DNA of 64,000 bases, taken from positions 1-64,000 of the forward strand of contig NW_026866106.1 of NCBI RefSeq assembly GCF_026571515.1. Reading direction: 5' to 3'. A program made the translations under genes and the position numbers. This document shows positions 31,325 to 31,886 of this stretch, piece by piece. Positions within the stretch are counted from its first letter, which is position 1; every line of letters starts with the position of its first letter. The DNA comes from Ruditapes philippinarum. Lineage: Eukaryota. The notes under the pieces are model-generated. The model was not told the DNA's origin, did no database searches, and saw only the letters and a list, made by a program, of their open reading frames with translations.

Positions 31325-31515
31325 CATAAACGACCATTCATACATTTGAAAAGGACCATACGACATTGGTGGCCAGTGTGGGGGCCGTGACTGATATAGC
31401 TCAGAGTTTAATTTACATTGCTCTGTAACTCTGTGAAATTCGAGGACGAATTTCAATATAGCAGGGGTGTATGTCACGGTTCAGAACTGTTCACTATTTA
31501 GGGGAGAAAATGTGC

Positions 31516-31587
31516 AGCCTGACCGGGACTCGAACCCGGGACCCTCGGAATACCGTACCGCGGCTCTACCGACTGAGCTATCCGGCC
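31516..31587 (-). ncRNA. tRNA-like Pol III cassette (tRNA-Lys-derived) inside the TRIM LTR, copy 1
   Basis: GGCCGGATAGCTCAGTCGGTAGAGC..AGGGTCCCGGGTTCGAGTCCCGGTCAGGCT: intact A and B boxes, D stem and perfect T arm; the anticodon arm is degenerate. Confidence 0.8.
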
Positions 31588-31765
31588 GCTTACACATCTT
31601 CTCCCCTAAATAGTGAACAGTTCTGAACCGTGACATACTCCCCTGCTATATTGAAATTCGTCCTCGAATTTCACAGAGTTACAGAGCAATGTAAATTAAA
31701 CTCTGAGCTTTATCAGCCACGGTCCCCCGTTGGGCGCCAAATGTCACAGGGTGAGAAAAATGTGC

Positions 31766-31837
31766 AGCCTGACCGGGACTCGAACCCGGGACCCTCGGAA
31801 TACCGTACCGCGGCTCTACCGACTGAGCTATCCGGCC
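31766..31837 (-). ncRNA. tRNA-like Pol III cassette inside the TRIM LTR, copy 2
   Basis: Identical to 31516-31587, offset by 250 bp. Confidence 0.8.
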
Positions 31838-31886
31838 GCTTACACATCTTCTCCCCTAAATAGTGAACAGTTCTGAACCGTGACAT

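Follow-up and report, generated by a model that had tools for sequence, protein, structure and literature searches.

The window analysed here, 64,000 nucleotides of Ruditapes philippinarum (contig NW_026866106.1, positions 1 to 64,000), contains a short, non-coding, LTR-like repeat with tRNA-like sequences, and raises the question of what this element is, how its unusual copy arose and which elements could have moved it. A sequence-only reading had placed a complete LTR-interior-LTR element at 31472-31885. Its description of the unit was borne out, as 250 bp made of a 144-bp TG..CA LTR and a 106-bp interior carrying a primer-binding site (PBS; TGGCGCCCAACG) and a polypurine tract (PPT) were found, but the span itself does not have this arrangement. 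The LTR on the left, at 31472, comprises only LTR positions 1-129, followed by an inverted copy of LTR positions 1-43 and an inverted interior, so that the clean LTR-interior-LTR order is replaced by a truncated copy fused to an inverted stub. No target site duplication (TSD) flanks 31472 and 31885 as the bounds of an insertion; the start lies at 30811 and a foreign 555-bp LTR is included. The parts are as follows, with the basis or context of each in brackets.

30712-30806, plus strand: older dispersed repeat, the target of the insertion (resumes at 31890)
30807-30810, plus strand: left TSD, TACG (matches the right TSD)
30811-31365, plus strand: LTR of Gypsy element X, 555 bp, TGTCA..CGACA (also found alone and in copies of ~9.1 kb, with 4-bp TSDs)
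31367-31384, plus strand: 18-nt complement of the tRNA-Ile(AAT) 3' end (host tRNA-Ile genes, native X PBS)
31380-31471, plus strand: Helenus interior copy A, covering positions 15-106 and the PPT (4 of 92 sites differ from copy B)
31472-31514, plus strand: Helenus LTR stub, positions 1-43 (comparison with the complete LTR)
31507-31635, minus strand: truncated Helenus LTR, positions 1-129 (meets the stub inside the inverted repeat of the LTR)
31515-31587, minus strand: tRNA-like cassette, copy 2 (identical to the cassette at 31765-31837)
31636-31741, minus strand: Helenus interior copy B, 106 bp (Lys(CUU)-type PBS 31728-31739, hairpin, PPT 31636-31646)
31742-31885, minus strand: complete Helenus LTR, 144 bp (sequence comparison among copies, Rfam)
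31756-31760, minus strand: T5 run of the complete LTR (just downstream of the cassette)
31765-31837, minus strand: tRNA-like cassette of the complete LTR (Rfam; A box 31819-31830, B box 31776-31786)
31857-31862, minus strand: TATA-like hexamer of the complete LTR (25 nt upstream of the cassette)
31886-31889, plus strand: right TSD, TACG (matches the left TSD)

The sequence-only reading had proposed an LTR element that is non-autonomous, carries a tRNA-derived cassette, is moved in trans and belongs to a known class, and this can now be made specific. The element is Helenus (TRIMp3; Kojima 2024, PMC10886601), every feature that could be tested against the sections of that description used here having been found, and its Lys(CUU)-type PBS, also recognised from the start, agrees with Fig S2C of the same paper. 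The name Ajax, which had been used for tRNA-bearing TRIMs, does not apply, because in the available text of PMC10886601 Ajax carries 5S and the tRNA-bearing elements are Helenus.

Helenus is a young, multi-copy TRIM in this species. A first look at the 1.41-Gb genome gave 3198 candidates, and scoring the best 40 of them gave 109 matches, as had been anticipated for a mobile element. Plain LTR-interior-LTR copies of 394 bp exist (L002, L004 and L005, for example), which are non-coding and under 1000 bp. Thirty loci were fetched and three duplicates were dropped. At the TG..CA ends of the remaining 27 distinct loci, which like the other loci here are best matches or exact-pattern matches and not a random sample, the expected TSD was found as an exact 4-bp repeat in 16, with one mismatch in two and not at all in nine, eight of which are X hybrids; 5-bp TSDs numbered 0. 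The Lys PBS occurs in its 18-nt form at 90 sites, and all 30 of those fetched continue in register.

Several other forms of the family were also seen. Three inverted Helenus dimers (L009, L011 and L152), with outer ends that are both 5' or both 3' and one 4-bp TSD, are fold-back cDNAs inserted whole. At L025 (2061-2087) and L171, a fold-back at the self-complementary ACGT of the Lys PBS links two LTR ends tail to tail. A subfamily (L009, L027, L116, L119, L128 and L136) has a different PPT-proximal end, closer to the PPT of X; the exact motif of this subfamily end was present in 8 of 59 Helenus loci, duplicates counted.

In the window, a single TSD encloses a hybrid of 1075 bp (30811-31885), in which the X LTR and an Ile PBS are followed by a Helenus interior and LTR stub and then by a second, inverted Helenus. 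The final G's of the Ile PBS are common to X and Helenus (microhomology), and a 160-nt inverted repeat lies within the insertion. The target repeat had 39 other matches among the 40 scored, and all seven paralogues fetched run from one TACG on into a right flank like that of the window; against 1000 shuffles, at most one was as good for five of these paralogues, and 21 and 24 were for the other two. As TACG stands on both sides and the paralogues of the target are uninterrupted, the hybrid entered as one piece. Between the two Helenus interiors 4 of 92 sites are different, and between the LTR copies 0 of 129; three of the four interior differences recur as variants at other loci, which indicates two Helenus templates and at least three templates in all. 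An independent case of the same fold-back was found at L109, which lies on a different contig and has flanks of its own. The assembly contains no haplotig with an empty allele of the insertion, and none of the listed joints of the aligned sequencing runs bypasses it; one contig of run X7 ceases to match at 30805 and has a further 113 letters beyond that point, no more than a hint.

The window also holds tandem arrays. One of these, at 31914-32886 and 24 bp to the right of the insertion, has a 145-bp period (6.8 copies, 84% matches) and is very deep in both DNA and RNA runs. Others lie at 1382-2185 (period 56 bp), 18312-19728 (156 bp), 33763-34427 (165-170 bp), 42853-43474 (20 bp) and 47448-48277 (55 bp).

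The two tRNA-like cassettes of the window are identical, as had been noticed from the start, and both match the Rfam tRNA family at 44.5 bits (cut-off 29, E 4e-08). The A box, B box and T-run originally described are present at LTR positions 56, 100 and 126-130, respectively. This T5 is the sole run of four or more T's in the Helenus unit and was found in 119 of 132 cases across loci, duplicates counted. The LTR also has its own inverted repeat around the cassette, in the arms of which the 3' breaks of truncated LTRs cluster (6 of 19 at positions 35-43 and 8 of 19 at 129-140), while the 11 5' breaks are scattered and gave no start-site signal. In the one RNA run used, of which ~4% was read, both strands were equally represented and discrete starts were absent. 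Motif searches of the genome for a host gene of tRNA-Lys(UUU), the tRNA that the sequence-only reading took the cassette to resemble and with which molluscan Helenus cassettes would be expected to align, gave 0 matches. Helenus may be transcribed by Pol III with leaky termination.

The foreign LTR belongs to an element, X, represented by solo LTRs with TSDs (four were seen) and by elements of ~9.1 kb with 4-bp TSDs. The open frames of the X copies examined are broken up, but they match gag, reverse transcriptase (RT), RNase H and integrase, arranged as in Gypsy, and X is on this sequence evidence a Ty3/Gypsy element. The native X PBS pairs over 15 nt with the host tRNA-Ile(AAT) genes. Genes for tRNA-Ile(AAT), Leu and Ala also form a tandem cluster that repeats every ~1.3 kb (L086-L092; G000:C13702, about 100-111 kb).

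The PBS next to X LTRs is in some copies longer than the native one. Among 30 X-LTR loci it was native in 14, lengthened in eight and missing in eight, and six of the loci were joined to Helenus; an exact-pattern census of X LTR ends gave 19 with a lengthened PBS and 30 with a native one. The 19 lengthened ends continue into Helenus in ten cases, into X itself in nine and elsewhere in none, and among the nine self-landings L094 and L098 are one duplicated event and L106 has an identical junction. At L014 and L105, the tRNA-Ile was copied on to its anticodon loop, which marks plus-strand strong-stop DNA and has been reported for HIV-1 too (portions of PMC12657518). These read-through cases carry the argument, because Helenus may have supplied the extra G's of the in-register hybrids, and such G's were favoured by the search pattern. 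The read-throughs, of which two are independent (L014 1323-1364; L085/L105), both end within the anticodon, beside position 34, and may reflect a stop at inosine.

Joints between X and Helenus are not confined to the window. They were found at 12 of 53 distinct Helenus loci, and 22 contigs with X hybrids were collected after exclusion of a nested solo LTR (L073); an exact TSD encloses the hybrid in ten (one of them in a TA run), a TSD with one mismatch in one, and 11 are truncated or ambiguous. Among them, an X LTR stands exactly where the 5' Helenus LTR should be (L096), a Helenus LTR start is attached to nearly the whole of X (L074), and a mixed Helenus array with interiors of different variants is flanked by two X LTRs (L077). 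Beyond PBS, PPT and LTR ends, no packaging sequence common to Helenus and X or Y3 was found, and the Helenus hairpin is absent from two X copies and Y3. At L027 and L157, a Helenus LTR end is linked by an 18-nt T run, possibly a copied poly(A) stretch, to the final 117 bp of the X LTR.

An earlier idea that X was the sole partner, no other having recurred among the 53 loci, was limited by sampling and was dropped, since Lys-primed partners were found later. A pattern search for non-Helenus LTR ends before the 18-nt Lys PBS found 14 such sites, in which at least four families are represented; this is a lower bound because the pattern misses some LTR ends. Eight of these sites enter the Helenus interior in register, one leads to an inverted Helenus LTR, four continue into their own interior, and at the last a stretch of other DNA precedes part of a Helenus interior. 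The nine Lys-primed hybrids have a clear TSD in five cases, a probable one in one and an ambiguous one in three. Of the Lys-primed families, Y3 is a Gypsy element of ~9 kb, and its RT/RNase H and that of X are 67% identical (310 residues compared); the 3' LTR end of the full Y3 copy is clipped and the TSD evidence covers X. Y1 and Y2 start with TGTCAC, as Helenus does, and their LTRs are 67-69% like that of Y3. Gypsy coding domains were read in X and Y3, and Y1, Y2 and Y4 are known here from their LTR/PBS ends. Helenus in this genome could best be read as a generalist, joined to the Ile-primed X and to at least four Lys-primed LTR families.

During normal retrotransposition, synthesis of the plus strand runs through the LTR and 18 nt of the primer, halts at m1A58 and transfers via PBS pairing, and the integrase requires just two CA ends. 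The explanation that we favour, with a probability of roughly 0.78, is that Helenus RNA, presumably made by Pol III, is co-packaged and moved by several Gypsy families, and that the window copy is a copying accident on this route. Transcription would start near LTR position 49, pass the first T5 and stop at the second, giving an RNA of ~330 nt; as the T5 precedes the PBS, this read-through has to be assumed, which counts against the Pol III step, as do the absence of discrete starts in the RNA run and of a start-site signal in the LTR truncation points. The hybrids suggest that the RNA would be packaged in Gypsy particles, primed by tRNA-Lys(CUU) and copied by Gypsy RT, that Gypsy and Helenus intermediates could meet inside one particle, and that the resulting Helenus DNA would be integrated with a 4-bp TSD. 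For the window copy, X plus-strand strong-stop DNA, consisting of the LTR and a tRNA-Ile copy, may have jumped in register to a Helenus minus strand at the PBS. Extension to LTR position ~43 would have been followed by annealing to a second Helenus plus strand via the inverted repeat of the LTR, and the product with two LTR 5' ends would have been integrated in one piece.

The share of X in this could be questioned, as the Lys-primed Gypsy families alone could be the true helpers, with X occasionally co-packaging Helenus RNA without productive copying. Such a scheme fits most of the favoured explanation and differs solely on the share of X. It would agree with the inference of helpers from common primers (Kojima 2024, PMC10886601, as far as the sections used here go), with the higher proportion of Y-type LTR ends that lead to Helenus (9 of 13, versus 10 of 49 exact X ends) and with the genome pattern search for primer-switched Helenus, in which its own LTR followed by an Ile PBS gave 0 matches. 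However, X hybrids at L012, L074, L099, L152 and the window hold complete Lys-PBS Helenus units with Helenus LTR termini and flanking TSDs, which indicates that Lys-primed Helenus DNA was made and integrated along with X DNA, and we therefore find it rather unlikely that X stands outside the helpers. Annealing outside the particle was also considered, in which the single-stranded PBS tail of Gypsy cDNA pairs with chromosomal or free-cDNA Helenus (integrase-independent single-strand annealing) and X need not be a helper. The PBS is indeed the point of junction in many hybrids, an exact TSD is missing from 12 of the 22 X hybrids, which also speaks against the favoured explanation, and Tf1 inserts at PBS-like sites and at pre-existing Tf2 (PMC11042837, in part). 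This possibility is nevertheless improbable, because ten X and five Y hybrids have a TSD with a Gypsy end on one side and a Helenus end on the other, the X LTR of L096 takes the exact place of a 5' Helenus LTR, none of the 19 landings hit other genomic DNA, and the window copy has two 5' ends in a target that is otherwise uninterrupted.

It is also hard to see the window structure as a nested insertion or an assembly fold-back artefact. The palindrome could invite such a reading, no aligned contig spans the stretch, and L073 is one true nested solo LTR; but the junctions lie inside Helenus without an inner TSD, the arms of the palindrome differ at family-polymorphic sites, and L109 repeats the fold-back with flanks of its own, all of which leaves this reading very little room. 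Equally little can be said for the idea that the element has multiplied a tRNA gene that still functions, the cassette, even with its score above the Rfam cut-off and with seven bivalve Helenus families that could encode tRNA-Thr (PMC10886601, in the part available). It has non-standard pairs in the acceptor, D and anticodon stems and is without U33, ARAGORN calls across loci are split between Pro(cgg), with 78, and Thr(ggt), with 69, and the fold of lowest energy has a shape other than a cloverleaf (z -0.70). As part of the favoured explanation as a whole, the cassette is most probably a promoter module and not a working tRNA. Helenus cassettes will swell tRNA gene counts in this genome.

A broader version of the favoured explanation, which we hold to be probable with somewhat more reserve, is that several Gypsy families co-package Helenus, among them one primed by another tRNA, often with several RNAs per particle, and that the hybrids are a fossil record of this. 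The same transfers would offer a route for switching the PBS. In-register plus-strand transfer across families as the route of PBS switching is hypothetical, as no primer-switched Helenus was found. In the sections of Kojima 2024 (PMC10886601) used here, the helpers of animal Helenus were inferred from likeness to Gypsy in PBS and TSD length, Cassandra was without a known helper, and the mechanism of primer change was called unknown. The available text of a 2026 survey of sugar beet (PMC13570524) found partnerships hard to reconstruct, suggested generalist mobilisation, and described template switching and hybrids among non-autonomous families. The class of element is already published, and the informative part is the hybrids, which make the helper question testable from sequence alone; no report of hybrids between Helenus and a helper or other Gypsy element was found in a literature search that was thin in subscription journals. 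TSD-flanked hybrids can name helpers without homology to the parasite, which is applicable to any TRIM, and they warn that matching by PBS type may overlook a partner.

Compared with known systems, the nearest Helenus entries by eye are Helenus-3_CGi, -3_CVi, -4_SaGl and -4B_SaGl (PMC10886601; the group of the oyster Helenus-3_CGi). In the entries available, they have in common with the present element an A/B-box cassette in an LTR of ~140 bp, an interior of ~105-120 bp, TGTCAC..CTGTGACA ends, a Lys(CUU) PBS, a hairpin that likewise precedes the PPT and is the same, a 4-bp TSD and tandem arrays. Kojima's bivalve families all come from Pteriomorphia, and some Helenus families, such as Helenus-5_SaGl, have an Ile PBS. 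No identical consensus was seen among the bivalve Helenus entries of the supplement, compared by eye without alignment, and helper-Helenus hybrids, as found here, are not reported in the sections of that paper used. On the PBS rows of its Fig S2C alone, the PBS of X reads like that of Gypsy-167_CGi (Ile) and those of Y1-Y3 like that of Gypsy-125_CGi (Lys).

Ajax and Cassandra, according to the same sections of PMC10886601, are likewise TRIMs whose LTR holds the Pol III promoter of a small RNA, but theirs is 5S-derived (with a 5-bp TSD in Ajax), whereas the Rfam matches of the present element are to tRNA only. A SINE2 would have a tRNA head, a LINE-like tail and neither LTR nor PBS; no such ending was seen, and the copies here end TG..CA with 4-bp TSDs. 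The biv-TRIM element, in the portion of PMC6934838 used, is a bivalve TRIM with tandem forms, as here, but it has repeats of 202-218 bp, an interior of 77-80 bp, no canonical PBS and a partner that was not found, in contrast to the 144-bp LTR and clear PBS of the present element. The closest parallel to the proposed accident is the aberrant second-strand transfer of HIV-1 (PMC12657518, in part), in which the primer tRNA is copied past m1A58 and the transfer is misplaced, as would be the case here. In HIV-1 this takes place within one virus, whereas in R. philippinarum it would have joined an autonomous element to its parasite.
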